Part shown: positions 23,668-63,760 of the stretch, in pieces
Numbering within the stretch: position 1 is the stretch's first letter
Layout of the letters: the number at the start of each line of letters is the position of its first letter
Assembly: GCA_051362555.1 (NCBI GenBank)
Contig: CM120643.1
Location: 17,364,848-17,428,847 of the forward strand
Direction of reading: 5' to 3'
DNA length: 64,000 nucleotides
Source: Lingula anatina
Lineage: Eukaryota; Animalia; Brachiopoda
Notes under the pieces: model-generated
Seen by the model: only the letters and a program-made list of their open reading frames with translations
Databases searched by the model: none
Told to the model about the DNA's origin: nothing
Program-made: the position numbers and the translations under genes

Positions 23668-23733
23668 TACTCATGTTGAAAGTCTCTTCCTCTTTTTGCA
23701 TCCTCCGCCATATGTGACGACGTTACTGACTTA

Positions 23734-33900: not shown

Positions 33901-36900
33901 CCACATCTCTTGAAGACCTGTCCACCTGTGCAAGGTGGGCACTGGTCATAAGTAACACACTGACCATTGTGCCATATAGGCTTGTCTGCTGGGCACTCGC
34001 ACTTCTGAACACACTGTGCAGTACACGGTGTGGGTTTGTTCCAGTTTGCACATGTGACGTCACAAGCTGATCCGCACTCTGTGTAGATTTGCCCACCAGA
34101 ACAAACTGGACACCCCTCCGAGGTGATACACTGGTCATTGTGCCAGACTGGGGCCTCTGGCGGACACTGGCATCTCGGTACGCACTGTTTGGTACATGGT
34201 ATAGGAGATCCCACATTCTCGCACGTGACGTCACACGCAGACCCACATCGTTTGAAGACCTGTCCCCCAGCGCACGTGGTGGCTTAAAATACATTAACTT
34301 ATTCTAAGTGTCCAAACAGATGCGTATTTTTTACAATGTTATCTTCAAGTTCTCGATAATGATAAGACTTTTTGCCAATTTACCTAGAATTTAATGAACA
34401 TCCTTAGTGTGATTTTTTTATACTATTTCCTTTAAAATTAATTCAAGAGGTACTCACTGACGGACGCAAGTGGTGATACACGGCACTGTTCCTCTAGGAT
34501 GCACTGCTTGTTGTGCCATACTGGTAGTTCCGAAGGGCACTGACATTTTGGAACACATATCAATGGACAGGGCATTAGAGAATTCAAATTCTCACACGTG
34601 GTCTCACAAGATGAACCGCATTCCATGTAGACCTGTCCACCAGAACAGACTGGGCACTGTTCGGCAGCAATGCACTGGCCATTATACCAAACTGGCTTGT
34701 CTTGAGGACACTGACATCTTCGGACGCATTCCCTAGTACATATTATCGGAGAGCCCACGTTTTCACATGTGACGTCGCAAGCTGATCCGCATTCTTTATA
34801 AATCTGTCCACCAGAGCAGACTGGACACTGCCCGGCCGTAACACACTGGTCATTATACCACACTGGCTTGTCTTGAGGACACTGGCATCTTCGGACACAT
34901 TGCTTTGTACATGGTACAGGGGAACCCACGTTTTCACATGTGACGTCACACGCTGAACCGCATTCTTTGTAAATTTGACCACCAGAACATGCTGGGCATT
35001 GTTCTTCAGTTATACACTGTCTGTTATGCCAAACTGGTTTATCTTTAGGACACTGGCATCTTCGGACACATTGCTTCGTACATGGTATAGGGGAGCCCAC
35101 GTTTTCACATGTCACGTCACATGCTGAACCGCATTCTGTGAAGACTTGTCCTCCGGTGCATTCGCCTATAAAATACTTTGTACTTCTAAATATCATTGAA
35201 TATAGTCGGTATACTGGAGTAGACCTGCCTGTGTTATGCTTATTTAATAACGGCAGATTAGGAAAGTATTTATCTGACGATGATGACAACTCAAATTTTT
35301 GTATAGAATTTTGCAAGATAAAACCATAGTTACCGTTACAGTTTGCGTCAGTGTGTGTTTTCTTTTGCACTTCATCTTTTCCATCTTTTCAGTCACACTT
35401 ATATTTGTGTTTTAAACTATTAAGGCTTTATTTACAAAGAGACTGAATAATAACCATGAACATGCAATACGTGGGTGAAGCTCGCAACCGCTAGGTATCG
35501 AACTTTCAGATTCCATTACCTGATGCAGTGCACTCTTCTTCCGTGATACACTTGTCATTTTGCAAAACTGGGCGTTCCGATGGACAGTGACACCCTTCAA
35601 CACACCTGAGGCTGCAGATAAGATTGTTGACGTTATCACACGTGACATTACACGCAGGTCCACACTGCATATACACTTTGTCTCCTGGACACGACGGGCA
35701 TTCCTCCGCTTTAATGCACTGTCCTTTATGCAAAACTGGGGCCTCTGCAGGACATTGGCATTTAGGCACACACTGTTTGGTACATGGTATAGGAGTCCCC
35801 TCGTTCTCGCACGTGACGTCACACGCTGACCCACATTCTTTGAAGACTTGTCCTCCAGTGCACGTGACGGCTTAAATTAAATTATCTTTTGCTAAGTGTT
35901 CTGTGGCGTCTGTTGTATACATAATAGTGAAAATTCAGCAATGCTTTGATTAATTTTTTGAAATAAATTTTGTATAATGAAAAAGTAAACAACCCGAGTG
36001 TGCAATAATTGGTACAGGGGTGTGCCCATGACTGGACTACAATTGTATGTCATGTTATTCATGAGAATGTTGAACACTATAGTACAAGCTTTGCAAAAAG
36101 GATGACGGCTTGTGGTTTAACAACTAAGGTCACCATATATTTCTTGCTACATAGAACATTAAAACTTGGTTGGCGCTTGTTAAAAGCTTTTGTAAAATGC
36201 GCGGAGGGCAACAAATGGATAGAAACAATAACTTGACATTAGTTATTTTTCAACAAAACATGAAACAAAAAGCATAATTCAAATCAATCATCTTACCTGG
36301 TCGAGGCTTCACCGCACAAGCCTCGGCTGTAACACACTTCCCGTTGTGCCAAACAGGCAAGTTGCGAGGGCACTGGCACCTCGGTACGCACTGTAAGGTA
36401 CACCCTCTGTCCTTATCTACATTCTCACATGTGACGTTACAGGCCGATCCACATTCCACGAACACCTGCCCTCCTGGGCAGCCTGGACACTGGTCAGCGG
36501 TGATGCACTTGCCATTGTGCCACACGGGACGACTACGGGGACACTGGCATGTAGGGGTGCACTGTAGGCTGCAACCTACAGGCGGTTCCAAAACGTTTTG
36601 GCAGTTGATCTCGCAGGTGGACGCACATTCCATTCTTACTTGACCCCCAGTACAAGGTGCTAAAATGAAATCGAAACCCATAAAGACTGGTGCGTCTGAA
36701 AGCTCGTCTATACAAGACCCATACTTTGGAATGTATGACACTGCAAAGGCATGACGCCCCTGCAGAATAAGGTAATTTAGTCCAACCTATCACCGAAATT
36801 GAACAAGGCACTTACATTCTGGAGGATCAACTAGCCTGCCACCGAACAACAGGGCGCCAGTGCTATTGTCAAATATCCAGAACGAAAAGGGATGGTCAGC

Positions 36901-38412
36901 GGTGAAGGAAAGGGGCACAGAAGTTGTGGTCACTTTGGCTGCCGTGGCTGCTGCCGCTTCCGTTCCCTCTTCATCTACTTTGATGTAGGCTTCGTGAATT
37001 ATCTGAAAATCAATTAAAATGATAATCTGATGAGACAAAAATGATAACGGAGATAAAACGCATTTGTTCTGTTTAAAGATATTATTTTATTTGCATATCC
37101 ATAACATATATGTCGCTTTTATTTTCAGATTCAATACTCCAGTTCAATTTCAATTTCAATGAAGTGACAACAGGGAAGGGTTGGATCCCACATGGATATA
37201 AATGACCATTTTCCTTCTTTGTATATCAAAGTTGGTAGCTCTGGAGCCGTTTTATTGCATTCCTATCTTACATACTAGCATTGCATGCAAGCCGTCATTC
37301 CGAATTCTGCCTTGCTTCAATTTTTATAGCAATAGGGAGCACTGGCCGATCAACAGACAAAACATTTTGGCTAGTACTATCATCACTAGCAATATTACCT
37401 TTGATAACTTTAGATCACCAGGCATACCTCCTATGCCTGACAGGTCAGCATTGGACGAGAACAGGTCGGTTATCCCAAGACTCTCGAGTGAATCTTTTAA
37501 ATCAATGCGCATGTCCTCTAATTCATATCGGGGCAGCGACACGGAGACTTTCGTCTCTTGCATGGTAGAAAAAAGTCCAGACAATTCATCAGCGGTAAAC
37601 TCAGATTCAAAATGGCTGAGTCCATCACGCTGGTCGGGCAGTATAATCAGCATGCTGGCCGTTCCTTCATAAGGAATTTCTATCATGGAGGCCTGCCATA
37701 TCTCACTATGGGCATACCTAAATCGTCCAGTCTGTGTCATCATATCGACTAACGTGGGGCGAGGATTAGCAGTATAGAAAGGGTGTTTTCTTGTCTGTAA
37801 GTGGTCGAAGGGGGACGCCCATTTCCCCTTAAAATACACAGCACTTACGAGAGCCAGAATAGTAGAGGGGGTGACATCACCCGGTTCGAGAAGATCTTTG
37901 ATTTTGTCTTCCGTTTGCCCCTCGACCCATCTGTTGATCTCAGTCCTTGATTCTTCCGGAGAACTTACAAAATCAAGGCGTCCCAGTGGAGCTCCATAGT
38001 ATGTAAGGCTGTCTTCAGTGTAGCTGGTATTAAAAAAGAATCCCTGGTCCCCAAATAATCTATTTGCAATACGGAGTGTGGCGTTGTTGTTAGGGTCCAC
38101 CATGGCATCAAGAATATTCTTATAATCTTCATGATGATCGGTTATATGCTCTATCCCCAGGACGATGTCCATTTGTACTTTGGTTTTGCCTCGAGCGCCC
38201 AGTTCCAGCATGCTTAGTGCGCTATGGATATTGAAGGGGGAGAACAATATATTCGACTTTGGCGGTAACATTCGGATCTTGTTGTACAGTTTAATTGCAA
38301 AAACATTACTTTGATGAGCAAGTGGTTGCCCGGAAAGCCCAGCACTCGATCTTAAATTCCCAATCAAATACAGCAACTGTAGCAACAGGACAGGCCATTT
38401 TCGTAACGCCAT
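28591..38412 (-). CDS. Secreted serpin-TIL(x15)-TSP1(x2)-SUEL-like(x2) multidomain protein, ~1626 aa
   Basis: Phase-compatible exons 38412-37399, 37002-36816, 36659-36297, 35870-35520, 35165-34458, 34282-33758, 32689-32531, 32114-31948, 31589-31427, (31038-31006), 30870-30178, 29725-29567, 29216-29050, 28782-28591; total 4881 nt, single open frame. Confidence 0.85.
33554..33710. mobile_element. 157-bp MITE with a 5-bp TSD CATCA
   Basis: caggcccgtag ... ctacgggcctg. Confidence 0.8.
36816..37002 (-). CDS. Sole serpin RCL / C-terminal exon of the cluster
   Basis: IIHEAYIKVDEEGTEAAAATAAKVTTTSVPLSFTADHPFSFWIFDNSTGALLFGGRLVDPPE; phase-0 acceptor, phase-1 donor gtaagt. Confidence 0.95.
37399..38412 (-). 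CDS. Serpin body exon A (signal peptide to start of s5A), 338 codons
   Basis: MALRKWPVLLL..., NILFSP, VSAVYFKGKW, ends KLSK|gtaata. Confidence 0.95.
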
Positions 38413-39248
38413 CTTTTCCGTTTTCCCACCTCCTTTGACTGGCCTTCTCCACAAGGCCTTATGTTATAAAGAGACGACAAATAGGTCTAATGGTTTTAAT
38501 TCCAATGTCGGTAACAATTTTGCATGGTTTTACATGCATTCAAATACTGTGCCATCATCTTTCGGAGACAAATGATGATACATCTAGATAAAATTAGATA
38601 AACTGTACATCTATTTGTCGGTTTGCATTGCAACACCCTGGCTTAAGTGTCATTTTGACAGTCATCTGGTATTGTACTCATGGCGCCTGCCTTATGTGAC
38701 AGCAATGAGGACAACTTAAAATATAACACCATGAAACGCAGGGTGGCTCTGACGTCTTTTAAAAACTAATTAGGATTTCCACAGCATTTGCATCGGTTTA
38801 ATGTACCGCTTACGCTCAGGATGGATAAAGACATTAGCTTTGGGTTAATTGCGGACTGTAAACATTGCACATTCAATTTCCACTTTAAGAAAATTAAAGG
38901 TTTCTTAAAAGCTTTAATGGCTGTGACTAATAGCGGCAGGTGATATTTTGTTCTGTTTGCCATATAGACTTTCACGTCAATATTAAAAGATTTTATCTAC
39001 TGCCAACGGTTAAATAAAATGTACGGTCGCAGATGCAGAACCAATACATTAAGTTACGAGGGCAACAAAATTACACCACCTACCGTATCCTTACGAGCTA
39101 AACAACTCATAGGGACACGACTATTTCAGGTGTTTCTCAGCGAATTCAGTCTCTGCAAGTAAAGTAGATGACAGTCGAGGCATTTATGGGGGACGACAAG
39201 GATGAGGGGGTTCATTAGAATGAGATGCACATGTATTTCGAAGTATAC

Positions 39249-40200
39249 AGTAGCCCCAAAAGTTTGGCACACCTTCAAAAAATTTACAGGTTTTCCAATT
39301 ACTTGCGCAATTACTGACAAAATTGATGACATTTTTGCACCCCCTTCTTCATTTATTTATCCTCCTATATATTAAGGTAACCTAGGACAAATGTGAACAC
39401 TTTCCAGTGGTCTGTTACCTCAGTGCCACACCCTAACTAAAGTAAGCTACATGCAAGGTGTGCGTTTATGTTCACTTTGTTCGAATATCACGTCATACGT
39501 TGAACCACAGACTGGAAATGGTCACAGAGAAAGAAAAATGATAAAATATACAAGACCTGAACATGATCACTGCATAAAGGCCCCCTTACGCAGAGCATTC
39601 TCTGAGGCACAGTGGCAAAAAAAAAAAAATCACCAAAGCCCGATTTTCCAGAGGATGGGTTATCATCAGACCTCTGATTTGTGGCTTGGGCCAAGATGTT
39701 CTCCCAAGAAAACTTATTTTGGCAACACAGAGGAGGTACCGCTGCTAAGATTCAACCCATCAACTACACAACAAATTTGTAATTGGAAGCATGTCTGGTT
39801 TTCTAATGAAGTGGGATTTCTTCGTTCTCGTGTATTTAGCAGGCTGTATGTTTTATGTCGGAAACAGATCGGAACAGTTGCCCATGGTAGTGGTGTTGTC
39901 CATCTTTGGGATGCCATTTCTTATGGACGTCTAACCAATCTGGTGTTCCTCAGAGAGAGCTTAGCTGCCGCCCTCTACACGCACGTTCTTGCGATAGAAA
40001 TGGTGCCATATGTTAAAACCAACCTTGGTCTTAACTTACTGTTCCAACTTGCAGAACACAAAAATTTTTTCAAAAACCAGGAAATTGTGCAAGTAGACTG
40101 GACTGCTCATTCTCGTGGTTTGAATCCCATATAGCACTGCTGGGATGTTCTAAATCGTACTGTCATGAGAGGTGAGGTCTATCCGACTACTGATTTCTTC
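39249..40200 (+). mobile_element. Degenerate Tc1/mariner transposon
   Basis: TA-cagtagccccaaaagtttggcac terminus; WKHVWFSNE and DWTAHSRGLNPI remnants. Confidence 0.7.
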
Positions 40201-40950
40201 ATGACACAGCATTGTCTATGGAAGATATGCTTCTCTTATTCATGCTTCCTTGAACATGGCATTTGCCTTTTCACTGTAAACTGCTATTAATTCCATCAAA
40301 TGGAATTATTCCCGCATATATTCAGTTACTTGAAGGCGAACACGAAATAATTATAAAACACTTACAAACTGGTTGAGTAATAAATGTGTCTTAGTTTGAA
40401 CTCATTGAAATCGTAAACACAACATTCTGTTGGAGATTATATATTCCGTCATTTCTAGCAAAAGTGGCTATGAGCAATTTTCCCTTAATATATGTGTAAT
40501 CTTTGTTGGACCAAACAATTCAAGAAATCACAGCAACAGATGATAGTTCGATCTACTTTTGGGCGCCTTTGACCGCATTCACATCGAGTTGGGCAATGGC
40601 TCTACAAAGCCACGAACTAAATATGGCGGACGTTTTAAAGTAAAACTGACAGTTGTTTTGTGTCTTTAGTGAACTAGTGAATTTTTTTAACTTGTTATTC
40701 AGAAATACCTGTACATTCCAATAAACTTCCTTGCAAGGTCAGCTAACACTAGGATAAATAAGTCGCTGTAAATGTGATGGAGTGAAATTAACAAAGTTGA
40801 CAGTTCTCGGTACCCTGTTATAGATAGGTTGAGGTGATTGTGACTTTGTTATATATATAACATGCGTGAGTGTGGAACAGAGTGCTCAACAGTACGGATC
40901 ATTTGTACACAATTAAAATTAATAAATAAATAAATAAACAAAAGACATGC

Positions 40951-41015
40951 AATAACCCCGACTCCGAGTTTCACGGGCATACCCAGAAGGTATGCCCGAT
41001 CGTCAGGAGGTTTAT
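40951..41015 (-). ncRNA. Type I hammerhead ribozyme (Penelope pLTR copy)
   Basis: Reverse complement of 42431-42496. Confidence 0.8.
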
Positions 41016-41060
41016 CATCTGTTGCTGTGATTTCTTGAATGTTTATTTATTTTCTTATAT

Positions 41061-41093
<33 letters not shown>

Positions 41094-41184
41094 ACAAGCG
41101 TGAATGTGGAACAGAGTGCTCAACAGTACGGAGCATTTGTACACAATTAAAATTAATAAATAAATAAATAAACAAAAGACATGC

Positions 41185-41252
41185 AATAACCCCGACTCCG
41201 AGTTTCACGGGCATACCCAGAAGGTATATGCCCGATCGTCAGGAGGTTTATT
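41185..41252 (-). ncRNA. Type I hammerhead ribozyme (2-nt insertion in stem II)
   Basis: Reverse complement of 42431-42496 with an extra TA. Confidence 0.75.
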
Positions 41253-42430
41253 TGAAAATGGTTATATTAGCCGTTTTACATACACAGCGTGACGACACTT
41301 ACGTCGCACGCCGTGTTAGTTACGTCACTTTATGCCGACACATGGTAATTATCTCAGTTCTTTTATTCAGAGTATCTGGTGTTATCATTATCAACAGTTT
41401 TTCGTCTAAGCAAAGATTGCATAGGTGCTGATTTCTCCTTTGCGGCGTTGATTTCTTTATGATGTCCCATCTAATGTCATAGTGGGTTTTATTTTCTGTT
41501 AATTTCTAAATGTATTTGGATAACTCAGTATCTGCAGCATATTTCTTGTCTCTAAATGACTTGGTGTGATTATTGTATCTCAACTTAAATTGGCCACCAC
41601 AAAGCCCTATATATTTCATGCATTTGTCCTTAGTAGTGACTGATGCTTGGTACACAATGTTGCTAGACAAGCATTCCCCTCTTACTAGAAGCTCTAAAAT
41701 TACATTTATTATCTTGAGTGTTAACTAACATGTTTTTTAGAATTTTTTTATTGTGACCGTGAATGATTTGCTGTACGTTTTTCATACAACAGTAACTTAC
41801 TTTTACAGTCGATCTGTTGAATAATCGGTAAAGCTTGCTTCCGCGAGGGAAATGCTTGTCTAGCAACTGTAGGAATATATGCCCGATTTTCGTTCTTACA
41901 TTTTTCGAGTATGGTGGGTTGAACCAAATAAGTTTCCTGTTTCGTTTTTTCTTTTCTCTGGGACGAGAGCTGCTTGCTTTAGAGTTAACGACATTACGGT
42001 ATAGCCCGCGGTTTGAAGCGCCGTCGTATATACGTTATCTGATCCTTCTGCTACCACTCCGTCATACGAAAGGGATTGCAATCTTTCGCCGATGGCTTTA
42101 GGAATGTTCCTTATTATTGCGGGGGGGTGATTTGAGTGTTTGTGAACATAGATCGGCTGGGCGTTCGGTTTTACGAACTGCCTGTGTTTCCCGGATTCTA
42201 AGTCTAGGTTAACATCAAGGAAGTTAACTGCTCTATCGTTGGTGGATACAGTGAGTTAAGGTCATAACTTTTGAAGAGCTTGACTATATCCTTTCTAATG
42301 CTGTCAGCTTCGCTTCCACCACAAGATTTCATCACGGCTAAGCTGAGATAATTACCATGTGTCGGCATGAAGTGACGTAACTAACACGGCGTGCGACGTA
42401 AGTGTCGTCACGCTAATATAATCATTTTCA

Positions 42431-42496
42431 AATAAACCTCCTGACGATCGGGCATACCTTCTGGGTATGCCCGTGAAACTCGGAGTCGGGGTTATT
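42431..42496 (+). ncRNA. Type I hammerhead ribozyme
   Basis: aaacctc-CTGACGA-t-cgggcatacc/ggtatgcccg-t-GAAA-ctcggag-TC-ggggtt; GUC cleavage triplet at 42485-42487. Confidence 0.85.
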
Positions 42497-42528
42497 GCAT
42501 GTCTTTTGTTTATTTATTTATTTATTTA

Positions 42529-42599
<71 letters not shown>

Positions 42600-42626
42600 T
42601 TGGAAATCCTTGGAAGGCCAAACATA

Positions 42627-44288
42627 CAGACTTGACATTTAATATGGAATATTTTTTTCGAAATAATTTTTTATCAGTTTTTTCCTATTTTGCTGACTGA
42701 TAAATGATAATAAGGATTAAAATCGTGTTTTAATAACTTTTAATTATCTCCTTGATGTCATTGTGACATCAGTTTATTAATGGAATTCGCCAGAGAAGCA
42801 AACAAAAACACATTGCCTATTCTATGTCATACGACAACCATTAAAAGAGATATTTTGGATCTCCATATTTTCCAAATTATCGTCTGTAAAAGGGTAATAC
42901 GCTCCACAAAAGACCCTCATGTCAGTTGCTAGTCACAGTAATGCTCGTTGTTACGCCTGGCCTCTTCGTGGCTGTTGCCAGCGCTCTCAAGCGGCAAGGC
43001 ATTTCTTGGGGGTAGGTTTTTAGAGTTCAATCTGGAATAGCATTCCAGGCATCGGTCTAAAATTGTCCAATCTGGTCCAGATTTGTTGTAGGACATGTAG
43101 GCAGTTGATTGGTGAATAATGGTCTACCGAAATATTGTCTATTTGGTTCAAATGTGGCGATTTTGATGACCAGGGAAGCTGGTCATTCCCTTGGTTCTGT
43201 AAGTTATCTGCTATTAAAAGTGCTCTGTGTGAACCATCAACCTCATCGTGCAACTTAGACTTGTTCCTAAGGTGCCCCCTATCAAATGATAGTCAAGTGG
43301 TTCCGAGATTATTCCTTTATTTGATCTGGTTCAGGTTTTCGTCGATGACTACCATTGGTGTTTTGGCACCAATGTGGAATCTACTCCAAATATTGACGCT
43401 GTCAATCACCCTTGTCACTTTAGACCCGGCATATGCTTCGTCGTAGGCCTCTTCTGGATATCTGTAAACTCTGTTTTGACTAATTGGGCGGTACAGGTGA
43501 AATCTGACCTCAATAAAGAAAGCCACGCAGTTTCATTGTTCTACCCAGAATCGTTCATGGCCCCCAATTCATGAGAGAAACAGACGACGATGTTTTGCTG
43601 TATACAGTGGGTAACTCGGAGGTCATTTGGTGTTCTTACCTGCTAAAACCAGTTTGGTGTTCGCTAAGGGCTTTGAAAAACGCATTTTAGTGGCAATTTA
43701 CCCCTCGTTCTGAACGGACTAAATGTTTTTTGTTTAGTTGCAGCAGCGTATCCCGATAGACAGTGGGTCCTGTACCCTGTAGGTAAAATTTTGATACATT
43801 GGGGGTGACCTCTGTGTAGGTACATCAGTCTGGGCATTACTCTATAAAACTGTGGGGACCGTTCCGTTTGGCGCTATGATCTGTCTGGTTATGTTTGTCT
43901 TTTTCGCGCCATTCTGCCTTAGATTAACAACTTTGTAATGCACTACTTGACTCATTTTACGCACTGAAAAACTGACCGCTTGCATGCAAAATTTCAAATT
44001 CTTCTATGCAGTAGTTGTCGAAATATGGATACTTTTTTGGCAGAACCAAGCTTTGCCTAAGCCAAGCTTTGATCAGCCCAAAGAAACACTACCCAATTAA
44101 ATCACTGCAAATTACATAATGTAGCAGCGCAATAGGCATGAAAAACAGTTAATTGGTAGTGACACACCTTACTGCACACTTTTACATTCAAACATCTTAT
44201 ATGAGATAGGATGTTTTTGAAAAAAGAACGTATTTTTACCTAGGCATACCTTCGAAACTGAAATATTCCATATTAAATGTCAAGTCTG
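42627..44288 (-). mobile_element. Full-length but decayed Tc1/mariner element
   Basis: Perfect 28-bp TIR cagacttgacatttaatatggaatattt, TA TSD, LPWSSKSPHLNQIDNI remnant. Confidence 0.88.
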
Positions 44289-45042: not shown

Positions 45043-46065
45043 CTTTGACAACTGAAGTTCACCAGGGGTTCCTCCTATACCTGACAGGTCAGCGTTGGAT
45101 GAGAACAGTTCGGTCATTCCAAGACTTTCGAGTGGATCTTTTAAATTAACACGCATGTTTTCTAATACAAACCGAGGGATCGAAACTGTCAAAATAGAAA
45201 GCGCCGATTCCTGCATAGAATGGAAAAGCCTGTGAATTTCCTCACCAGAAAACTCAGATTCAAAATGGCTGAGTCCATCACGCTGGTCGGGCAGTATGAT
45301 GAGCATTCTGGCCGTTCCTACATAAGGAATTTCTATCATGGAGGCCTGCCATTTCTTGCTGTAGATATGCCTAAACAATCCAGTCTGTGTCATCATATCC
45401 ACTAACGTGGGGCGAGGATTAGCAGTATAGAAAGGGCTTTTTCTGGTTTGTGACGGGTCAAAGGGGGATTCCCATTTTCCCCTGAAGTACACGGCACTTA
45501 CGAGAGCCAGAATGGTAGAGGGGGTGATATCACCCGGTTCAAGAAGATCTTTGATTTTGTTTTCCGTTTGCTCTTTAACCCATGTGTTGATCTCATTTCT
45601 TGATTCTTCCGGAAAATTTACAAAATCATGACGTCCCATTGGCGCTCCATAGTATGCAAGACTGTCTTCAATGTAGCTGGTATTAAAAGAGAGTCCTTGT
45701 TCTCCAAACAATCTATTGGTAATACGGAGAGTGAAACCGCTGTTGACGTCGTTCGTATCTTCAAGAACGTGACTAATATTTATATGAATATTGGTTATAT
45801 TCTCTATTTCCAAGGCAATATCCACCTGAACTTTGGTATTCCCTCGAGCACCTAGTTCCAGCATACCAAGCGCAGCAGAGATACTGAGAGGGGAGAAAAA
45901 GATATTCGTCACCGAGGGAAACGTGCGGATCTTGTTGTAAAGTTTTGCTGAAAACTTGTTGCTTACTCTTGAAAATGAATGGTGAAATCCTCCATCAATC
46001 GATTCAAGACCTGCGCTCAAAAACAGCAGTTGCAACAAAAGGATGGACTGTTTGCCAAACGCCAT
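45043..46065 (-). CDS. Serpin body exon B, 341 codons, no RCL exon of its own
   Basis: Intact ORF with signal peptide MAFGKQSILLLQLLFL; ends QLSK|gtaata in phase 0. Confidence 0.9.
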
Positions 46066-46499
46066 GTTTTCTATTTTCTATCTTCTGCTAGGCCCTTTTT
46101 CGAAAGCCTTATCTTTGAAAGGGATGCTAAAAAGGTTTAATAGAATGCAGTATACCCCGTCGCATACATACCATCCGCTTCACGCCCCTAACCTTTTACC
46201 CAGATCACGTGACCACGTGATTTATTACATCACACATGTATGTATGTATGAGTTTGCCTGCACGCATACAAATACTTCCCGTTCTCACCCTCAGACGGAT
46301 AATGACAGACTAATGCACTCTTGTACATATACTCCCCTATTAAATAAAGTGTCACCACTACCGTATATTGCTACAAAGGTTCCTATAGTTTAAATTTTAC
46401 TATTACATTTCAACTAGGCAACCGATCGTCGTATAAACTGCGGGTGTGAGTAGTAGAACATTTAACTCTCTAGTGTAACCATTGAAATACTAAAACAAA

Positions 46500-47300: not shown

Positions 47301-47339
47301 AATTTTTATATTATAAAGGTCGCATGAAATATACTACTC

Positions 47340-50300
47340 GACATAAATTAGGGAGCCTACCTACTCTTATTAAATTTTAGCAGTTCTAAGGCAAAGTCAT
47401 CATCCTGTAACCTATTATATGACATTTCTACTTTAAATGATTTTCTATAAAAGTTTTTCACTCGTTAAATGTGATAATGGCAATTATACATTTAGGGTGA
47501 TGTACGTAAAAATTGGGTAAAATCTTTGTAGCAGTAGGCCAGCTGCAGCATGCCACTACCAACAGCACTTGAGCGATTGCTACTCAATGGACTAACCCAA
47601 GTTGGTCAGTTGATACTTTGTCAGCAACTTTCTACAGTCACATGAGCTTATCCGTGTCACAGCCTGGCAGAGCGTGGACACTTTGTAGCTGGCTGCACTT
47701 TTATGTAACTTACTGCACTACAGGAAAAAAACATCGCGTCTCGATATGAGCAACAGGTCAACAAGGCGATCTCTGGTGTTGTTAGCCTCTAAATTCTACA
47801 ATATATTTAATTTATCTAATAAATAGGCCAACATCAGCGGTTTTCATATTTTTTCATTATTATTGCTGAAGAGCACAATAATGGACAAGACGTATTTTGA
47901 TTGAGCCAATTCTACGATTTTCATAACAAAATTTCAATTTTTACGAGGCTATAAATCGTTTCCTGTAGATGAGTGCCATTGCCTCACTTTCTAGAAATTG
48001 GATCTGTCGGTCAAATTGCGGAAGTGAAAGTTTAATATGTTATGTCGATTCATTTCGACCAACAACGTGGGTTTTCCTATATGCTTTACCTAATATAAGC
48101 CTTCCTACATTTTCGAATGCATTTTGTATATTTATCATTCACATTAGCTAACAAGGAGTATTTTATCAAGAGTGTGAGAGGGGTGGAAACTTCCCTTAGG
48201 GCCACATTGAACACTATAGATACTGTTGTGGTTGTGAGCGAGAATGTTATGGTTGTGGGCTGTCTTGGAGAAGCGCCATCCAGGTGTCTGCGCACGCTGA
48301 GTAAGCGCGCGTGATAGGAATAGAAGCTCTCCACTACGAGACATCAGACGAGACGCACCTTGTGCGTCAAGTCCACGATCTGTGAGCATTCCCTGGCCAA
48401 TACAACATCTACTTAATTATACCACTGTAGCTGACATTCATAGTGCCAGAGTAGTTATTGATCAAGAAGCGATTGTGAAGACGTACCATGATACCTATAG
48501 GTGGAATATAAGGTAATTCGTCTACGCCCCTGATCAGGGAGTAACAAACGCCTTTACGTGTGTCACTGCCACTTAGACTGTATCTACCACAAGGATAAGT
48601 GACTTTAGCCATTCTAGTTCACTTCAATGCAAAAGGAATCCCCTTACAATTAGGGAGAAATAAATGCCATTCTAAGGAAAGTTCGATGGATTTACCTTTA
48701 ATACATACAGTCAACAATATAGTTTCAATACGATTTGACAGTCGCTCAAAGAAAATCCAAGGACACATCACGACCAGTTAAACGGTTTATTTGTTGACTT
48801 TCCCTAACTACATGATCATCGTGTAGTCTCCAACTTTGGAACTCTCTCCCATAACTCGCGCCCGCCTCCTCAATTCTCTGAAGTGGTCTCTCAAAAACGT
48901 CCCCTCAGATATTAATTCCAAAGGCTTATATCCAAATTTCTTATATAACCAGTAGGTGGACTCAATGCTGTATTATTGCGATTGTCTATTACCTTACAAT
49001 TTCTATGAAGTGCGACAACAAGTCCGGTCGTTGAGAGTGATGAGAAACCGGCAACAAAGCTATATCAACAGTATCCCAGCGGGCAAATTATGTTGTTTTA
49101 ACGTTGAAACAACGTTGAACCATAACGTTGAAAAGACATTGAATAAACGTTGGATTTGAAAGTTGTGTCAACCTCAGGTAACAACGTTGTATCAACGTCA
49201 GAAAACAATGTTATATCAACCCTACCCAGCGGGATATTTGCCTGGATGTGTTTAGCAGTAGGACATGTTTGATGGCTAAATGTATGGCCTTTATGTTAAA
49301 ATTTCCAAGGTTTAGATTAATATATATAGATCTGATATATATATATATATATATATATAACAAGGTCACAGTCGCCTCAACCTATCCATAACCAGTTACC
49401 AAGAACTGTTAACTCCATCACATTTATAGCAACTTATTCATCCTAGTGTTAGCTGACCTTGCAAACAATTCAGTTTATTGGAATGTATTTCTGAATAACA
49501 AGTTAAGAAAATTCACTAGTTAACTAAAGACACAAAACAACTGTCATTTTTACTTTAAAACCATTTTGTTATTATTTTGATAAATTTAGTTACAGTATTG
49601 ATAAACAAAGTATCACGTTTTCAATAATTAATATCTTAAATTACAATCCATAACTGCAAGGTTGTGTCATTGACCAAAATACAACGTTGAGTCAACGTGG
49701 CTGGATCAACGTTGATTCAACTTTGAATTTAGGTAGATCAACGTTGATCCAACGCAACTATGCCTGCTGGGATGCCACTCTGCAAAAGGACATATTCTAA
49801 ACATGCTTTATATTTTAAAAGGGTTGTGAAAAGGTTTAATGAGCTGTGGCTTACCTCAAACACCTCTCTCGCAGATAAACCATGATTCATTTATATACAA
49901 CAAGATACATTAATTTGACAGTTTGTAACACTCTGTACTCGTTTTAATGACATTCTGATCGTTTTTGCTGTTTTAGTATTCTACACACGGTGTGTGCTCT
50001 GTGATACAGAAGCAAAAAATGGTTCTGGTGGCGTTTAAAAACATATGTATAGTTTTGCCTGCAAACAAATACCCCCGTTCTCTCTCCCAGACGAATAATG
50101 ATACATCTAGATACATGTACGATTAGAAACATTAGTTGACAGTTTGTTATATTCTTTACTCGCTTTTATGCCCTTTGGTGTGTGCCTTGTGATACAGCAG
50201 TAAAAATGGCTCTGGTGTCCTTTAAAAACTAATTAAGATTTAAACAATATGGGTGGGGAAGCTTTTAATAATTTAAAGGTGTCATAAGAATTTATTGAAT

Positions 50301-50975
50301 GGGCTATATCAGAAAGACTCAGCTGTGCACAATACACTGTTTGTTAACAATAGAAGTAGCCGTATTTACTCATCATTGCTAGAAGCTGTTGATGAACCAC
50401 AACTCCTCATTTAATAGAACTACAAACCCAACAGTTCAAATCCTCACCCGACTTTTAACCGCAGACTGATGGATACGGATACAGAGCAAGAGAAATGACA
50501 AAGAACCAAAGAATAACACATATACAGGTAGATCGCAGTTTTACCATCTGAGTGTATATCATTCCACTGCGATGACCAGAAAGCACGTAGACTTACTGGA
50601 TCGTATATCCAGAAAATCACGACATGCGGTGATGGTTCGATCCACTTTAGCCCAAATGTTTTTTTTTTTTTTTTTTTTTTTTTTGAAAAAAAAAATCTTT
50701 TAAAACGCCATATAACTATTTCATGATCATTGTCTACCATCATTTTCTCTAGGGATCGTCCGACGATAAATTTTCATAAAACTTCATCTCAAACGGCATT
50801 GCATGGTGACAGATTTCTTCTAGCATCACAAATTTTTGATGAATAAGTAATTTTTATGGAAATGCAAAAGCTAATATTTCACTTTCTTCCTTGCTTAAAT
50901 TATTTTCATATCAAAATGAGATGTCTCAATTCAAAGTCAAAATAGGGCCATTTTCTATGCATCATAGGCAGTCCT
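47340..50975 (+). repeat. Segmental duplication of the serpin inter-exon spacer (homologous to ~52200-55905)
   Basis: Colinear similarity throughout, e.g. 47940-48120 vs 53160-53330, 49770-50400 vs 54628-55270, 50620-50960 vs 55570-55895. Confidence 0.9.
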
Positions 50976-50977
50976 AC

Positions 50978-52042
50978 CTTTGACAACTGAAGTTCACCAG
51001 GGGTTCCTCCCATACCTGACAGGTCAGCGTTGGACGAGAACAGGTCGGTCATCCCAAGATTCTCGAGCGGCTCTTTAACATCAATGAGCATGTTTTCTAG
51101 TACAAACCGAGGGATCGAAACTGACTCTTTCGATCTCTGCTGCACTGGGAATGCTGGAACTGATCGAAACTTTCAAAATAGAAAGTGCCGATTCCTGTAG
51201 AGAATGGAAAAGCCCGTGAATTTCCTCACCAGAAAACCCAGATTCAAAATGACTGAGTCCATCTTGTTGGTCGGGTAGTATAATCAACATTCTGGTCCTT
51301 CCTTCATAAGGAATTTCTATCATGGAGGCCTGCCATTTCTTGTTGTAGATATGCATAAACAGTCCAGCCTGTGTCATCATATCTACCAACGTGAGACGAG
51401 GGTTAGCAGTAAAGAAAGGTCGTTTTCTAGTCTGCGACGGGTCAAATGGGGAAGCCAATTTACCTTCAAAGCACATGGCGCTCACGAGAGTCAGAATGAT
51501 AGAGGGGGTGATATCAGCCGGTTCTAGAATAGTTTTGATGTTACCCTCTGTTTGTGCTGTTTGTTGATTTCTATCCTTGATTCTTCCGAAAAGTTTACAA
51601 AATCAAGGCGTCCCAGTGGCTCGCCATAGTACTTAAGACACTCCTCAATGTAGCGGGTATTAAAAGAGAATCCTTGTTCTCCAAACAATCTGTTGGCAAT
51701 GCGTAGAGTGAAACTGTTGATGACGTCGTTCGTATCTTCCAGAACATTACTAATGTTTATATGAATATCATTTATATTCTCTATTTCCAAGGCAATATCC
51801 ATCTGAACTTTCGTATTCCCTCCAGCTCCCAGTTCCAGCATTCCTAGTGCAGCAGAGATACTGAGCGGGGAGAAAAAGATATTCGACGCCGAGGAAAATG
51901 TGCGGATATTGTTGTAAAGTTTTGCTGAAAACTTGTTGCTTACTCTTGAAAATGAATGGTGAAATCCTCCATCAATCGATTCAAGACCTGCGCTCAAAAA
52001 CAGCAGGTGCAACAAAAGGACAGACGATTTTCCAAACACCAT
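50978..52042 (-). pseudogene. Serpin body exon C, frameshifted, B/D chimera
   Basis: Frameshift near 51550 and 49-bp insertion at 51123-51171; donor QLSK|gtagga retained. Confidence 0.9.
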
Positions 52043-52547
52043 GTTTTTAGTTTTCTGTCCTCTACCTAGACCTTTTCCTAAAGTCTTATATTTAAAGTTA
52101 TTTTAAATGGGTTTAATGCGTTGCAGCATACGTGTCCTGCCCATTTGATAATTACATTTGAATACAGGATGGGAAAAATTTAAATACTATTTAGGGCACG
52201 TTAAATATGCTTCTCAACAAAAGTCAGGAAACCTGCCTACTGCTATTTAATTTTAGCCATCTAACGCAAAGCCACAATTACCCCTGTAAGTATTATGTGA
52301 CATTTCTTCTTCATCTGTTTTTCAATGTTAAAATAAGTGATAATCATATATTTTAGGGTGAGGTAAGTAAAATGGGTATCATTCCAGTTGCAGTAGGCCA
52401 TAAAGACTTGTGCCATTGCAGCTGCAGCATGGGTCGCTACAAGCCTTGCCATCTACAGTTTAGCTGCAGCATGTCACAACCAACGGCACTTGAGCAAAAT
52501 CTGCTGTTGGGACGGTGGGAATGAGGGTTGAACCTTCAATGGACTTA

Positions 52548-53050
52548 CTTAAGACCCCATTCCCATACCAGGATCGGTCCATCTCCGTGGGGATTCTTGC
52601 TAAATTGCTTCCAGCTTAAGCAGCTCTGGTGTCTGACACACCTACTGAAGCTGGTAAGCGATAGTTAGTTACCTTTACCCCTTTACAGCTTCAGTAGGCG
52701 TGCCAGACACCAGAGCCGTTTAAGCTGAGAGCAATTTAGCGAGAATCCCGTAGTTGATAGATTGATCCCCAGTTAGTACGATAGGGTTTGGAAATGGTCT
52801 CTTAGAGACAATTCCCAGAGACTATCGTACTAAATTTGGATCGAACTATCTCCAAGGGGATTCTCGCTTAATTGCAATTAACTTAAGCAGCTTATATGTC
52901 TGCCACACCTACTAAAGCCGATATGGGGTAATTAACTCTCGTTTAGTATCTTTAGCAGGCGTGCCAGACATCTAAGCCACTTAAGCTGAAGGCAATGTAG
53001 CAAGAAACCCCGTAGAGATGGACTGATCCTGTGAGATCCTGTGAGTCTTA
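52548..53050. mobile_element. Pair of adjacent foldback MITEs (related fragment at ~15205-15303)
   Basis: Internal inverted repeats gctaaattgct..cagcttaa..ctctggtgtctg / cagacaccagag..ttaagctg..agcaatttagc; absent from the paralogous spacer. Confidence 0.7.
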
Positions 53051-55909
53051 GTTAGACAGTTGAAACGTTTGTCAGCAACTTTCTACAATCACATCTGAGC
53101 TTATCTGTATCACAATAATAACCAAGCTTCTACAATTTTCAAAACAAAAAATCAATTATTACGAGGCTATAAATCGTCTCCTGTAGATGAGTGTCATTGC
53201 CTCGCTTTCAAGAAACAAGATCGCTAGGTCAAATCGCAGAAGTGAAAGTTCAATATGTTATGTAGGTTCATTTCTCCCAACAACGTGGGTTTTCTGATAT
53301 GCATTACCTAAAATTAACCTTCCTACCAGTACGGTTTTTAATGCATTTTGTTATAACATTCACACTGGCCATCAAGCAATATTTCCTTATCAAGAATAGG
53401 GGAGGGGTGGAAAATTACTTTAGGGCAACATATAACACTAAATATACAAATGGAATCCCCTTAAAATAATGGCAAAATCAATGTTATTCTAAGGAAAGTT
53501 CGATGGATTTACCTTTTAATACATACAATCAACAGTATAGTTTCAATACGATTTGACACCAGAAAGCAAATTCAATAAAATCAACCAGACGGTAAACACC
53601 GGAAAGCTTTATCAATTTCACCAATTTGTTTATTTCCAACAGCGCACTTTCGCGCATGCGCAGTCGTTTAAATCCTGTGCTCTTTAGTGCTCACACTGTT
53701 GCCGAAGAATCAGCTATTTGTTTTTGTGTGCCTTAAAAAATAACAACTGTTCATTTTGGGTAAAAAAATGAATTTTCCTGGGGTTAACTACAATTTTCCC
53801 ATACTAGCCAATGGTTAATGAATCCATTTCTACATTCATAGTTAGTCCCTGTTTTTTTTTTTTGTTTTTGTTTTTTTTTTTTTTCTAAAAAGTTTAAGAG
53901 ATAATTACAGAGAAAAGCCATCTGTGGGGGTCACGTGGTCCGATGACAAGCACAGATTTTAGAATAATTGTTATAATTGCCATTTTGGTGGTAAAATAGA
54001 ATTTATTATATTTTATGAGGTGTTTACAAAATATAGATTACTTACGAAGAGTTGTTATCCCTTTAATTATGTGAACTCAGTTAAAGAACTGATGCCAAAT
54101 TTACACCGAAAAGATTATGAAAAGTTTTAAAACAAAATTCAATCCTTGTTTTCCTTCATAAGTCGGAAAAGTAGGACAAAACCAAATAAAACTGATTTTG
54201 GGAAAAATATTCCACATTAAATGTCAAGTCTGCATATAATGAACGCTTCTATACCGCACAAAATACAATCCGAAATTCCACGGTTCCTGTCAGATTTACG
54301 TAAAGTCGCTCAAAGAAATCCCAAGGACACATGAAGACCAGTTACACGATTTATTTGTTGACGCTCGCTAATTACATGATCTACGCGAAGTTTCCAACTT
54401 CGGAACCCTCTCCCATAACATGTGTTCGTCTTTTAACTCTCTCAAGTGGTCTCTAAAAAATGTCCACTCAGATATTAATTCCAAAGGCTTATATCCAAAG
54501 TTCTTATATCAGGTGGATCCAATGCTGTATTATTGCGATTATCTATTGTCTCGCAATTTCTATGAAGTACGACAAGCCCTGGTTGATGAGAGGTATGAGA
54601 AACCAACAACGAAGATATATAAACAGTATGCCACTCCGCAAAAGGACATATTCCAAACACACTAAATAATAAAGGGATTGTGAAAAGGTTTAACATGTTG
54701 TGGCATATCTCAAACACCTCTCTCGCAGATAAACAATGATTCATCAAGATACAACAAGATACCTTAATTTGACAGTTTGTAACACGAGATCTGTACTCGT
54801 TTTAATGACATTCTGATCGCTTTTTTAGTATTCTACACACGGTGTGTGCTCTGCGATACAGAAGCAAAAATGGTTCTGGTGGCGTTTAAAAACACATGTA
54901 TAGTTTTGCCTGCATACAAATACCCCCGTTCTCTCTCCCAGACGAATAATGATACATCTAGATACAATAAGGTACATTAACTTGGCAGTTTGTAATACTG
55001 TCTGTACTCGTTTTTATGCCATTCTGTTTTGTTCTGTGCCTCGTGATACAGCAGCAAAATTACTCTGGTGTCCTTTAAAAACTAATTAAGATCTAAACAA
55101 TATGGGTGGGACAACTTTTAATAATGAAAAGGTTTCATAAGAATATTTTGAATAAGCTATATCAGAAAGACTCTCAACTACGTACAACACACCGTTTTAT
55201 AACAATAGAAGTGATCGTACAGTAGGCCTATTTACTCAACATTGTTAGAAGCTGTTGGTGAACCACATCTCATTTCATAGCTGCAGAACAACAAACCCAA
55301 CTATTCAAATCTTCCTACCCCCCCCCCCCCCCCCCCCGACTTTGAACCGCAGACTGCTGGAAACGGTAACAGAGCAAGAGGAACGAAAAAGAACCAAGAC
55401 TAACACATATAGATCGCAGCTTTAACAGATAAAGGAACCTGTATGGTCACGCCATGGAATCATGTGGCTTTAACGGATAAATCTGGATATATACCATTCC
55501 ACTGTGATCACCAGAAAGTAAGTAGACTAACTGAATCAAATAACTAGCTATACAAAATCACAACAAGAGGTGATGGTTCGATCCACTTTAGCCCAAACGT
55601 TTTTTTTTTTTTTTTTTTTTTTTTTGAAAAAACATAATATATAACATAATTTTATGATCATTCTCTACCAACATTTTCTCTAGACATCGTCCGAAGATAT
55701 ATATTTTCAAAGCTTAGCAAAAAACGGCTTTTCATGGTGACAGATTTCTTTTAGCATCACAATTTTTTGGTGAATAAGTGATTTTTGGTGGACATGCAAA
55801 AGCTTATATTTCACTTTCTGCCTTGATTTAATTATTTTCATATCAAAATGAGATGTCTCAATTCAAAGTCAAAATAGGGCCATTTTCTATGCATTATTGA
55901 CAATATTAC

Positions 55910-56923
55910 CTTTGACAACTGAAGTTCACCAGGGGTTCCTCCCATACCTGACAGGTCAGCGTTGGACGAGAACAGGTCGGTCATCCCAAGACTCTCAAGT
56001 GGTTCTTTTAAATCAATCCGCATGTTTTCTAATACAAACGCAGGGAGCGACAGTGACACATTTGTCTCCTGCATAGAACACCGAAGTCTGTCGAACTCAT
56101 CAAACGTAAACTCAGATTCAAAAAGGGTGAGTCCATCACGCTGGTCGGGCAGTATAATCAGCATGCTGGTCGTTGGAACGTAGTAAGGAATTTCTATCAT
56201 GGAGGCCTGCCATTTCTTGCTATAGGCATACCTAAATCGACCTGTCTGTGTCATCATATCCACTAACTTGGGGCGAGGATTAGCAGTATAGAAAGGGCGT
56301 TTCCTGGTCTGCCTTGGATCAAAGGGGGAAGCCCAATTGCCTTTGAAGTAAACAGCACTTACAAGAGCCAGAATGGAAGAGTTGGTGATGTCGCCCGGTT
56401 GAAGAATATCTTCGATTTTAGTTTCTGTTCGTTCTTTGATCCATTTGTTGATCCCAACCCTTGATTCCTCCGGAGAATTTGCAAAATCACGGCGCTCCAG
56501 CTGAGCGCCATAGAACGTAGTACTGTCTGCAAGGTAGGTAGAATTAAAAGAGAAACCCTGTGCTCCAAACAGTCTATTTACAATGTAGAATATGAAAGTG
56601 TTGTTTGAGTTGGTCGTATCTTCAAGAACGTAGCTAATACTTTCATGTACATCGACCGTGTTCTCTATCTCCAAGGCTATGTCTATCTGGATTTTGGTAG
56701 TGCCTTGTGCTCCAAGTCTCAGCATACCCAGTGCAGCAGAGACACTGAGCGGGGAAAAGAAGGTATTAGACACTGAGTCTAATGTGCTTATCTTGGCATA
56801 AAGCTTTACAGAAAACCTGTTGCTTACTCTTGAGAATGGGTGACTAAAACACCCAGCACTCAATCCAGAAAATCCAATCAGAATGAGGTGTAGAAACAGG
56901 ATAGAAAACTTTCCAAGCACCAT
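55910..56923 (-). CDS. Serpin body exon D, 338 codons, no RCL exon of its own
   Basis: Intact ORF with signal peptide MVLGKFSILFLHLILI; ends QLSK|gtaata in phase 0. Confidence 0.9.
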
Positions 56924-57769
56924 GTTTTGTTTTCACTCTTTCTCTGCCTAGCCCTTTCCCTTGTCAATTATATTATAAAGTACCGGCAAAACGGCTTCGT
57001 GGTTTTGATATAGAGCGCACCAAAAACAGGTTTGCATGTTTTTTCCTGCATACAAATATTTTTTCCTCTCTCCCAGACGAATGAAAGTGCGTTTACGTTT
57101 GTTAGATTATTTGATTTAATTGTCGGAATGGAACATCCTTATTTAAATGCCATTCTCATCGTCTCCCTATAATGTATACAAGGTGTGTCTTATGTTACAT
57201 TGTACAACTATACGAATTGCTCTCAATATGGAGACACAGAGTGGCTAATTGACATCTTTAAAAAACTAATTCAGTTGTCTGCAGCATGTTTTTGGCGTAA
57301 TGTGTCTAAATATGTAACTTAACAGTCTACAGTCTACAACTTTATGTAAAAGCAGTAAGGGATATTGAGTTCTGCTTCCAGTGAACACCTTACAAAGTAC
57401 ACTGCCATTAATGCTTCAATAATCTCAATATAGCCAACAGTCCGAACAGCAGACTTTATTCAAATTACATGATAATTGCAGGCAGCCAACAAAATATTAT
57501 AACAGTTACAGATGTCAAAAACAAGAAATTTAGCTTGTTTTTGACACTTTCAGTTAACAATATTACCCAACAGCAATATCTGTTAAACAGCTATGATTCT
57601 TAGTAAAAAAGTTATTTCTATCTTTGCGAGCACAGGGGATGTTTGATGTTTAAAAAGGGGGTGCGAGGATACATTAGGGAATTATGAAATTTGATGTTCA
57701 TCGCTGCCCAAATGGATTGGCTAGCATTTACGTTTTTCCTCGTGCTTTTTTTTTAAATTTGTAGAAGCA

Positions 57770-57930
57770 TGCGAATGGGTGAAAACAACACGCAGCACTT
57801 AATCAAAAAATTCCAATCAAAATTAGTAGGTGTGGCAAACTTTTTTCAGAAACCATGTTTTGTTTTCTCTCCTCCTTTTCTGCCTATCCCTTTTCCTTAA
57901 GCCTTATATTGTAGCGAACCAGGTAAAATA
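57770..57930 (-). pseudogene. Remnant fifth serpin first exon (promoter, 5'UTR, ATG 57856, decayed signal peptide)
   Basis: gaatgggtga..cagcact.aatc..aaa.tccaatca and catgttttgtttt..tctgccta.ccctt match 56834-56990. Confidence 0.7.
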
Positions 57931-63369: not shown

Positions 63370-63760
63370 ATGATATCAGAAATGTCAGAGGAATCAACGC
63401 GGCATATTTTGTCCGCAGACGCCATCCAGGAAGTAAATGACGACACAGAAGCAGACGATAGGCCGGAATCTCCTGCTAGGCTCAGCGTTCAGGCGGGCAA
63501 CACGTACCAAGTGCCCCAAATGACGTCAAAGGAAGAAGATCACCCGAAAACCATGCGTACCCCTTCAATGGCAGAAATCTTTGGCAACAGGAAAGCAACA
63601 TTGGCAGCAGCGTTGTTGCTGCTTATATACTTTCTCGTCTGTCTGTCCATGCGCGTTTCCGTCGCTACAGCCGGAGGTTTCTTTCTGTCACATTATTTGA
63701 GAAGCATGAATGCCACTTTAGCAATAAGTAATGCTTTCTTTGATAAATTGATTATGCTGG
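63370..63760 (+). CDS. Probable first coding exon of a membrane transporter (MFS/SLC16-like); the gene continues beyond the window
   Basis: Acidic N-terminal region, then a hydrophobic segment (AAALLLLIYFLVCLSM...GGFFLSHY), strong donor G|gtgagt. Confidence 0.45.

Follow-up and report, generated by a model that had tools for sequence, protein, structure and literature searches.

The window analysed here is a 64-kb stretch of Lingula anatina DNA that contains no N. It carries a 13-exon serpin-TIL-TSP1-lectin-like gene, with 8 of its 12 introns supported by RNA reads, and a tandem array of serpin body exons, three of them intact (A, B and D) and two decayed (C and E). The array and the single reactive-loop (RCL) exon downstream of it are laid out as follows.

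37399..38412, minus strand: body exon A, proximal; open, 338 aa, phase-0 donor
45043..46065, minus strand: body exon B, variable; open, 341 aa, phase-0 donor
55910..56923, minus strand: body exon D, variable; open, 338 aa, phase-0 donor
50978..52042, minus strand: body exon C; B-like body, D-like downstream intron, two frameshifts, upstream element missing
57760..57930, minus strand: remnant E of a fifth body exon; retains the 5' leader, the ATG (57856) and a decayed signal-peptide segment
52177..55909, minus strand: spacer following D; collinear with that behind C, without RCL exon
47301..50977, minus strand: spacer following C; duplicate of that behind D, without RCL exon
36816..37002, minus strand: constant RCL exon; s5A, hinge EEGTEAAAAT, predicted P1-P1' Thr-Ser, C-terminal strands

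The exon coordinates proposed in a preliminary description of this DNA (A 38412-37399, B 46065-45043, D 56923-55910) hold, each frame being open from the ATG to ...LSK/GT, and the phase-0 donor that it took to be shared is kept as AAAG/GTA in A, B, C and D. Its reading of C as a pseudo-exon and of E as a remnant is likewise borne out: C has 7 nt missing near 51558 and an excess of 49 nt near 51172, and stops lie between the two, while E starts at 57856, has recognisable homology over ∼90 nt and loses its frame within ∼15 codons. The tandem 5' exons are similar and in the same frame, each with its own ATG and leader. Identities between the bodies are 68% (A-B), 63% (A-D) and 68.5% (B-D), and identity among the copies is patchy, peaking in the central part and at the 3' end. 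Putative signal peptides, judged by eye, have a basic start and a hydrophobic core, and a sequence scan indicates that N-glycosylation sequons differ among the bodies. Concatenated multi-body proteins were also considered and are ruled out by the ATG and leader of each exon and by an in-frame stop in the leader of B.

Bodies A, B and D match the Pfam Serpin family (PF00079) from position 2/3 to 307/308 of 370, and the RCL exon matches positions 309-370, in phase with the bodies, such that the serpin domain is complete only if the two are spliced together. We mapped the body/RCL boundary onto the conserpin structure. The hinge, with small residues at P15-P9, aligns with those of conserpin and leukocyte elastase inhibitor, and the P1-P1' assignment was placed against the antitrypsin loop of 6ee5. 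Because every body lacks positions 309-370, no body can complete the fold alone, and a serpin is not expected to fold if it lacks s5A and the C-terminal β-sheet strands. Within the 64-kb window, tblastn and blastn with the RCL exon return solely 37002-36816 itself, in line with the earlier claim of a single such exon, and find no additional one between the bodies; the next tblastn match (E = 0.023) is the antisense of the RCL exon itself. Instead of several RCL exons behind one body, as in Manduca serpin-1, there is one RCL exon and there are five body copies. With three intact bodies and a single bait-loop exon, the likely arrangement is that all bodies are joined by splicing to the same bait.

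Over their whole length, the spacers that follow C and D are collinear, and both lack an RCL exon, which indicates that the duplicated unit was already RCL-less. The array would have grown by unequal crossover of units comprising upstream element, body exon and spacer, with members lost along the way (C, E).

A dN/dS near 1 for B and D would have refuted the earlier proposal, but the values are well below 1: 0.36 for A-B, 0.41 for A-D and 0.34 for B-D, with bootstrap confidence intervals within 0.24-0.55 (0.24-0.46 for B-D) and values of 0.34-0.52 by three other methods. Counting private changes only, dN/dS is ∼0.53 for A, 0.42 for B, 0.36 for C and 0.54 for D, each with p < 0.02 versus neutrality; on its own branch, C has 0.38 (p = 0.0007). 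Differences between D and the L. anatina protein P0131 avoid conserved serpin columns (11/107 versus 40/208, Fisher p = 0.027), as do those between B and P0011 (8/107 versus 30/208, p = 0.05). The variable exons thus show purifying selection plus birth-and-death turnover. C and D show purifying selection though their spacers hold no RCL exon, and hence most likely worked by skipping the downstream bodies. Gene conversion between paralogues, unseen ones included, can lower dN/dS in dead copies.

These data bear on the possibility that A alone is used and that the other four copies, as orphan partial duplicates, only look constrained, owing to gene conversion or very recent death. C and E are dead, the 3' end of the locus is also partially duplicated, the patchy identity is what gene conversion would produce, and a body-to-RCL junction is absent at ≥3 reads. 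However, B and D fall into distinct lineages with good support, and their orthologues in another Lingula genome are open; private-change dN/dS is <1 in each copy. In simulations at 0.05 indels per substitution, an open frame survives neutrally in 0.3% (D) to 1.3% (B) of cases, rising to 7-15% when indels are ignored; local duplicates have accumulated 0.11-0.17 indels per substitution. We therefore regard orphan duplication as unlikely.

The nearest proteins to the bodies are L. anatina RefSeq 'serpin B3-like' models, which are also RCL-less (XP_013419578.1, XP_013419575.1, XP_013407052.2, XP_023933613.1 and XP_013419574.1). These five are 63-87% identical to A, B and D, have the same scaffold length and all end at the LSK donor. 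The B orthologue, XP_013419578.1, is 86.8% identical and has the same intron read-through, a description that also fits P0011 (86.8% identical to B); the D orthologue, XP_023933613.1, is 82.8% identical, and D groups with P0131 (support 100/100). No L. anatina model is a clear orthologue of A, the best reaching 77%. In P0132, an old L. anatina model, the D orthologue runs directly into a B/C-type body, matching the order of the window. Synteny in related genomes, suggested earlier as a check, is thus favourable, if indirectly, in that L. anatina has open, RCL-less orthologues. The five models either read through into the intron or stop after a 5-residue tail, so that the annotation offers no spliced isoform.

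Protein searches found no L. anatina protein with the RCL exon or TIL region of this locus, and the window proteins had no exact-sequence match in the protein collection. A full-length relative was not found with D against proteins of 593-2000 aa, nor with the RCL exon against proteins of 110-2000 aa, where the matches listed were unnamed or prokaryotic serpins. Of the top matches of a TIL exon to 50% representatives, 10 were scanned and none has a serpin domain; the named ones are L. anatina papilin, zonadhesin and SCO-spondin.

RCL-less RefSeq proteins and the lack of a constant-region orthologue among L. anatina proteins would fit bodies that are completed elsewhere, by RCL exons missing from the assembly or in trans, or that act as stand-alone, RCL-less secreted read-through proteins; the RCL exon search, moreover, covered the 64-kb window only. 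Against this, the window has no N and its two spacers are collinear, four donors are kept as AAAG/GTA while the read-through tails diverge freely, and the bin spanning the 3' end of D and its read-through is without reads in 4/4 runs. Such truncated serpins are, as noted, not expected to fold. We consider this explanation very unlikely.

Beyond the RCL exon, the locus comprises the following.

33758..36659, minus strand: four constant TIL exons with 11 TIL domains (36659-36297, 35870-35520, 35165-34458, 34282-33758)
31427..32689, minus strand: TSP1 exon (32689-32531) and two Cys-rich SUEL-lectin-like exons (32114-31948, 31589-31427)
30178..30870, minus strand: TIL exon with 4 domains
28591..29725, minus strand: terminal module; TSP1 29725-29567, lectin-like 29216-29050 and 28782-28591 with stop; joints read in runs X4 and X5
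19286..20433, minus strand: second terminal module copy (20433-20275, 19918-19752, 19477-19286); open, canonical splice sites

Of nine read runs with the same label, seven (X1-X7) were aligned and junctions listed from ≥3 reads; ∼6% of X4 and X5 was covered. The RCL exon is spliced to the first TIL exon (4 reads of X5), and the joint between 34458 and 34282, within the TIL exons, is present in reads. No junction from B, C or D to the RCL exon was seen at ≥3 reads in the seven runs, with depth at the RCL exon ∼3 or less, and the A-to-RCL junction and three other predicted introns likewise lacked ≥3 reads. Coverage is 3'-biased, which accounts for the absence of any body-to-RCL junction, even that of A, at this threshold. 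Sense reads cover ∼290 bases of D in X4 (at ≥93%) and ∼730 bases of A in X5, and also fall on B/C in X5; judged from bin means, they correspond to ∼1-3 pairs for each exon and might stem from read-through or DNA. Antisense reads in X4 cover ∼260 bases each of A and B, at 86%. Depth was zero on the serpin exons in X1 and X7 and on the constant exons in X3 and X6.

Upstream of the intact bodies lies a conserved element, of the type GTATTTG(T/A)ATGCA in D.

57022..57082, minus strand: upstream element of D, candidate promoter element
46244..46305, minus strand: upstream element of B, conserved
38521..38600, minus strand: upstream element of A, conserved

A, B and D carry the element 120-200 nt upstream of the ATG, and C has lost it; it is also found twice without an exon behind it. 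One motif pattern gave matches at chance level only, and another 6 matches versus 6.7 expected at two mismatches, counts that are not independent because the patterns were drawn from the sites themselves. A homologous TATA-like segment had been reported at each copy. The segment is indeed there, but it is not uniform: B reads TTTCAAAGATAAG and has no canonical TATA, and in A, B, C and E it ends in ATAAG after a pyrimidine-rich run, an AG that D lacks. The ATAAG after a pyrimidine-rich run means that the segment could be a splice acceptor.

The same proteins could then arise from one upstream promoter and a non-coding leader, with A, B and D as mutually exclusive cassettes entered via the AG ∼42-45 nt before the ATG. 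Beyond the acceptor-like segments, AAG acceptors are predicted for two local TIL exons, one of them (34282) confirmed by reads, and P0132 enters its body exon through a leader segment matching the 'TATA'/AG position. However, D is without this AG, the upstream element is shared by A, B and D and lost in C, and a leader exon was not identified in the window. Nor is docking RNA pairing between the pre-RCL intron and the post-donor regions clearly above controls (single-base shuffles, 30 rounds): energies are -72.0 versus -61.5 ± 5.6 for B, -65.7 versus -60.2 ± 6.8 for C and -53.9 versus -55.4 ± 5.1 for D. We judge the cassette arrangement decidedly unlikely.

We conclude that A, B and D are probably variable first exons, in the style of UGT1A and the protocadherins, on a shared RCL exon. 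That variable bodies share this exon, whether as first exons or as cassettes, is likely. Of the earlier proposal of alternative first exons on a constant RCL+TIL region, the absence of an extra RCL exon and the low dN/dS stand; the separate promoters are still candidates. A, B and D would each have their own promoter, and a transcript from D or B, by analogy with UGT1A and the clustered protocadherins, would join its own donor to the nearest genuine downstream acceptor (37002) and skip the bodies in between. The predicted products are secreted serpins with one bait loop and one TIL/TSP1/lectin-like tail, in which about one-third of the body differs. The bodies may differ in exosites, glycosylation or expression; among these, sequon differences alone are visible in the sequence. 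What is gained is probably separate control by tissue or stage and an altered body surface (exosites, glycans, charge), not an altered P1.

The 3' end may be variable too, given that the second terminal module has dN/dS of 0.25 versus the expressed copy and is a candidate alternative 3' end. Searched singly, the lectin-like exons hit no Pfam family above the cut-off, and the SUEL-lectin-like label on the Cys-rich module is a lead only. We tentatively raise the possibility, somewhat doubtful as yet, of a two-ended modular locus with at least three promoter-bearing bodies and two terminal modules around one bait/TIL array. If so, the locus would encode at least six secreted 1,600-residue inhibitors, each with a serpin fold made up of one variable and one constant half. 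Such a locus would invert the splicing scheme of insect serpins and be a brachiopod example of a UGT1A/protocadherin-type cluster.

Where serpins diversify by splicing, the process is described as a swap of the bait on a kept body. Abstract-level literature searches, outside subscription journals, turned up no account of such a locus or design, and protein and literature searches gave no match to the serpin-TIL(15)-TSP1-lectin-like fusion. Because the bait would stay fixed while the bodies are only 63-68% identical, the locus would offer a natural test of the body's share in specificity, stability and cofactor binding. RefSeq annotates the L. anatina bodies as separate truncated genes, for which no RCL/TIL partner was found. 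If our reading is correct, these five models are wrongly split exons of a single gene, and it would be worth screening other genomes for the same pattern; variable-first-exon clusters would also extend to a lophotrochozoan defence-type protein.

Insect serpin-1 genes (Manduca serpin-1, PpSerpin-1; PMC10513286) also diversify one locus through duplicated exons and alternative splicing near the hinge/RCL. There, C-terminal RCL exons are exchanged on a constant body, whereas in the Lingula locus it is the body that is duplicated and the RCL exon that is single; N-terminal alternatives of the insect genes often affect localisation and leave the mature protein unchanged. Chelicerate sDscam offers an invertebrate precedent for tandem 5' cassettes, with alternative promoters and constant exons, established by RNA-seq and 5' RACE (PMC4835542). 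Its Ig-domain cassettes span two or four exons of a cell-recognition receptor, in contrast to the single-exon bodies of a secreted inhibitor, with predicted junctions, described here. Close parallels are vertebrate UGT1A, GCNT2, UGT2A and the clustered protocadherins, in which large, similar first exons, nearly equal in length and frame, stand in tandem ahead of shared constant exons, with an N-terminal signal, an upstream conserved motif, pseudo-exons and birth-and-death turnover (PMC1885805). That paper terms the Ugt1, Gcnt2 and Ugt2a organisation vertebrate-specific, and there promoters and splicing are demonstrated, whereas here they are candidates read from sequence. The UGT1A variable exon is a whole substrate-binding domain (PMC1885805), whereas the split in the Lingula array cuts through one fold and leaves the RCL, the main specificity element, constant.

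Re-reading of the sequence bore out the exon coordinates of the preliminary description for the serpin body exons A to D and the remnant E.

Serpin body exons and remnant
38412-37399, minus strand: body exon A, open from the ATG to an LSK/GT phase-0 donor
46065-45043, minus strand: body exon B, open from the ATG to an LSK/GT phase-0 donor
56923-55910, minus strand: body exon D, open from the ATG to an LSK/GT phase-0 donor
52042-50978, minus strand: body exon C, carrying a 7-nt deletion and a 49-nt insertion
57856, minus strand: remnant E, short

The donor is identical in A, B and D. Along the 370 positions of the Pfam Serpin model, the bodies match 2/3-307/308, and exon 37002-36816 matches 309-370. 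This reactive-loop (RCL) exon had been described as the only one of its kind, and tblastn and blastn of the window returned no extra copy. The hinge follows the inhibitory pattern, and P1-P1' aligns to Thr-Ser. The best database matches of the RCL exon are unnamed metagenomic or prokaryotic serpins (52-65%), which probably reflects consensus-like sequence and is no evidence of transfer.

The two spacers, 50965-47301 after C and 55897-52177 after D, are collinear (70-89%), and neither contains an RCL exon. C itself is mixed, its exon B-like and its intron D-like, a combination that we infer to be the expected outcome of unequal crossover between D and B at their 3' ends. The collinear, RCL-less spacers and the mixed make-up of C together indicate that no RCL exon accompanied C when it arose and that D lacked one at that stage as well.

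The preliminary description held that B and D keep open frames and donors, and their dN/dS is well under 1. Nei-Gojobori estimates are 0.36 for A-B, 0.41 for A-D and 0.34 (CI 0.24-0.46) for B-D; LWL85, YN00 and ML give 0.34-0.52 for body-exon pairs. For private changes over 330 codons, the ratios are ∼0.53 (A), ∼0.42 (B), ∼0.36 (C) and ∼0.54 (D), each below neutral (p<0.02). Differences from orthologues shun columns conserved in 199 other serpins for D versus P0131 (XP_023933613.1; p=0.027) and B versus P0011 (XP_013419578.1; p=0.05); with P0012-P0013, both from L. anatina, p was 0.26. Simulated neutral survival of open frames at orthologue distances is 0.3-1.3% with 0.05 indels per substitution and 7-15% without indels, and the rate among local duplicates is 0.11-0.17 indels per substitution.

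Changes in C and D accumulated under constraint although both are RCL-less. A serpin body is not expected to fold if s5A and the C-terminal strands are missing. Splicing past intervening bodies to a common RCL exon would be the simplest source of the constraint on C and D. Each body exon would splice over the intervening bodies onto the single shared RCL exon, and the locus is probably a serpin gene with alternative first exons, variable in body and constant in bait. Conversion from unseen paralogues could, however, mimic part of the C/D signal, and orphan or other readings, taken jointly, are possible but unlikely.

The L. anatina proteins bear on this question. The top four matches to B are L. 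anatina RefSeq proteins (76-87%), and a fifth, P0131, sits in the clusters of those four; judged by these matches, the window probably comes from a close Lingula relative. In all five, LSK is followed by intron read-through or a brief tail. The partner of D is P0131 (82.8%, grouping supported at 100/100), and B lies nearest to P0011 (86.8%), the two having the read-through VIMSxMQRxIVIF in common. An older model, P0132, joins the D orthologue straight onto a B/C-type body, in the order seen in the window. Protein database searches found neither the RCL exon nor the TIL block in any L. anatina protein, and A had no clear orthologue among L. anatina proteins; both results count against shared splicing.

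A, B and D have a common 60-80 nt element 120-200 nt before the ATG. C lacks it and is ∼1.1 kb shorter there than B. Copies of the element without a following exon lie in both spacers (54974-54897 and 50113-50046, minus strand), with partial tandem repeats nearby, and may mark lost cassettes. In A, B, C and E, the 'TATA' position could also be read as an AG acceptor. The same products could arise through cassette exons, which we consider improbable; we favour separate promoters for each body exon over a shared leader.

Seven of nine available RNA runs were aligned, with junctions counted from at least three reads upward. The constant exons are covered in two of the four runs of one layout (X4 and X5), where the first mate of every junction read lies on the plus strand, which sets the sense orientation in both. 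Eight of the 12 predicted introns are supported, one with a 1-2 base offset, including the RCL-to-TIL intron (four reads, X5). Those with fewer than three junction reads are A-to-RCL, 36297/35870, 35520/35165 and 33758/32689. The last (minus strand) lacks such reads in X4 and X5 despite flanking depth of ∼4-8; the RNA individuals may differ there or use another exon. Every X4 and X5 read that covers 30656-30710 or 31446-31485 carries the clusters of differences found there, marking the RNA as that of a different haplotype or of a paralogous copy. Coverage declines from 24-44 over the 3' end to 1.4-3 over the RCL exon, and none of the B-, C- or D-to-RCL joints reached three reads in the seven runs; given this threshold, the absence of body-to-RCL joints carries little weight.

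Bin means served to estimate base counts on the body exons. At ≥93% likeness, X4 shows ∼290 sense bases on D, and its A bins are empty; X5 has ∼730 on A and ∼260 on B or C, which are inseparable there; in X2, counted irrespective of strand, A carries ∼270 bases and C ∼230. If A supplied only some of the transcripts, coverage should be lower over A than over the RCL exon, and X5 gives 0.9 on the 3' portion of A against 3.0 on the RCL exon, but these counts are too small for a test. X4 also has ∼260 antisense bases each at A (within 37171-37837) and B (within 45175-45841), at 86% but not 93% likeness, possibly from another family copy elsewhere.

From A to 28591, the gene comprises 13 exons with AG/GT ends and 1615 codons without an internal stop, encoding a serpin, 11 TIL domains, TSP1, a Cys-rich module, four TIL domains, TSP1 and a second Cys-rich module. 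For the last exon of the Cys-rich module, the Atlas points to SUEL lectins (0.86; the family is assigned to 25% of that cluster's members), a label that is a lead only. One further feature lies beyond a Ty3-type element:
20433-19286, minus strand: second copy of the three terminal exons (TSP1 and lectin-like)
This duplicate is open, with canonical splice sites, matching phase and a dN/dS of 0.25 (22 synonymous, 19 non-synonymous; p=5e-5), and may be a candidate alternative terminal module. Ty3/gypsy-like gag-pol remains at 23670-21290 (minus strand; RVT_1 below cut-off) separate the two terminal modules, and the 220-bp stretch 23731-23950 is 100% identical to 8990-9209.

Elsewhere in the window, a broken Tc1/mariner-type element (60941-59069, minus strand; DDE_3, HTH below cut-off) carries 27-bp inverted termini (60960-60934 and 59620-59594). 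WD40-repeat gene exons (∼9875-16278, plus strand; weak Pfam matches) are convergent with the serpin locus and a possible synteny anchor. Plus-strand ORFs at 39397-40131 (245 codons) and 63307-63885 (193 codons) have no Pfam match.

Among the papers listed by literature searches, none was relevant to a serpin with alternative first exons and a shared loop, or to the Lingula locus. In serpins of the Manduca serpin-1 type, it is the C-terminal exons that vary, and alternatives at the N-terminus frequently alter localisation alone (PMC10513286); the Lingula locus does not conform to that type. Its layout is alike in anatomy and turnover to the UGT1A, GCNT2 and Pcdh clusters (PMC1885805) and to chelicerate sDscam (PMC4835542). 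Clusters of the UGT1A/sDscam type are defined by separate starts and junctions, whereas the Lingula likeness rests on anatomy and turnover.
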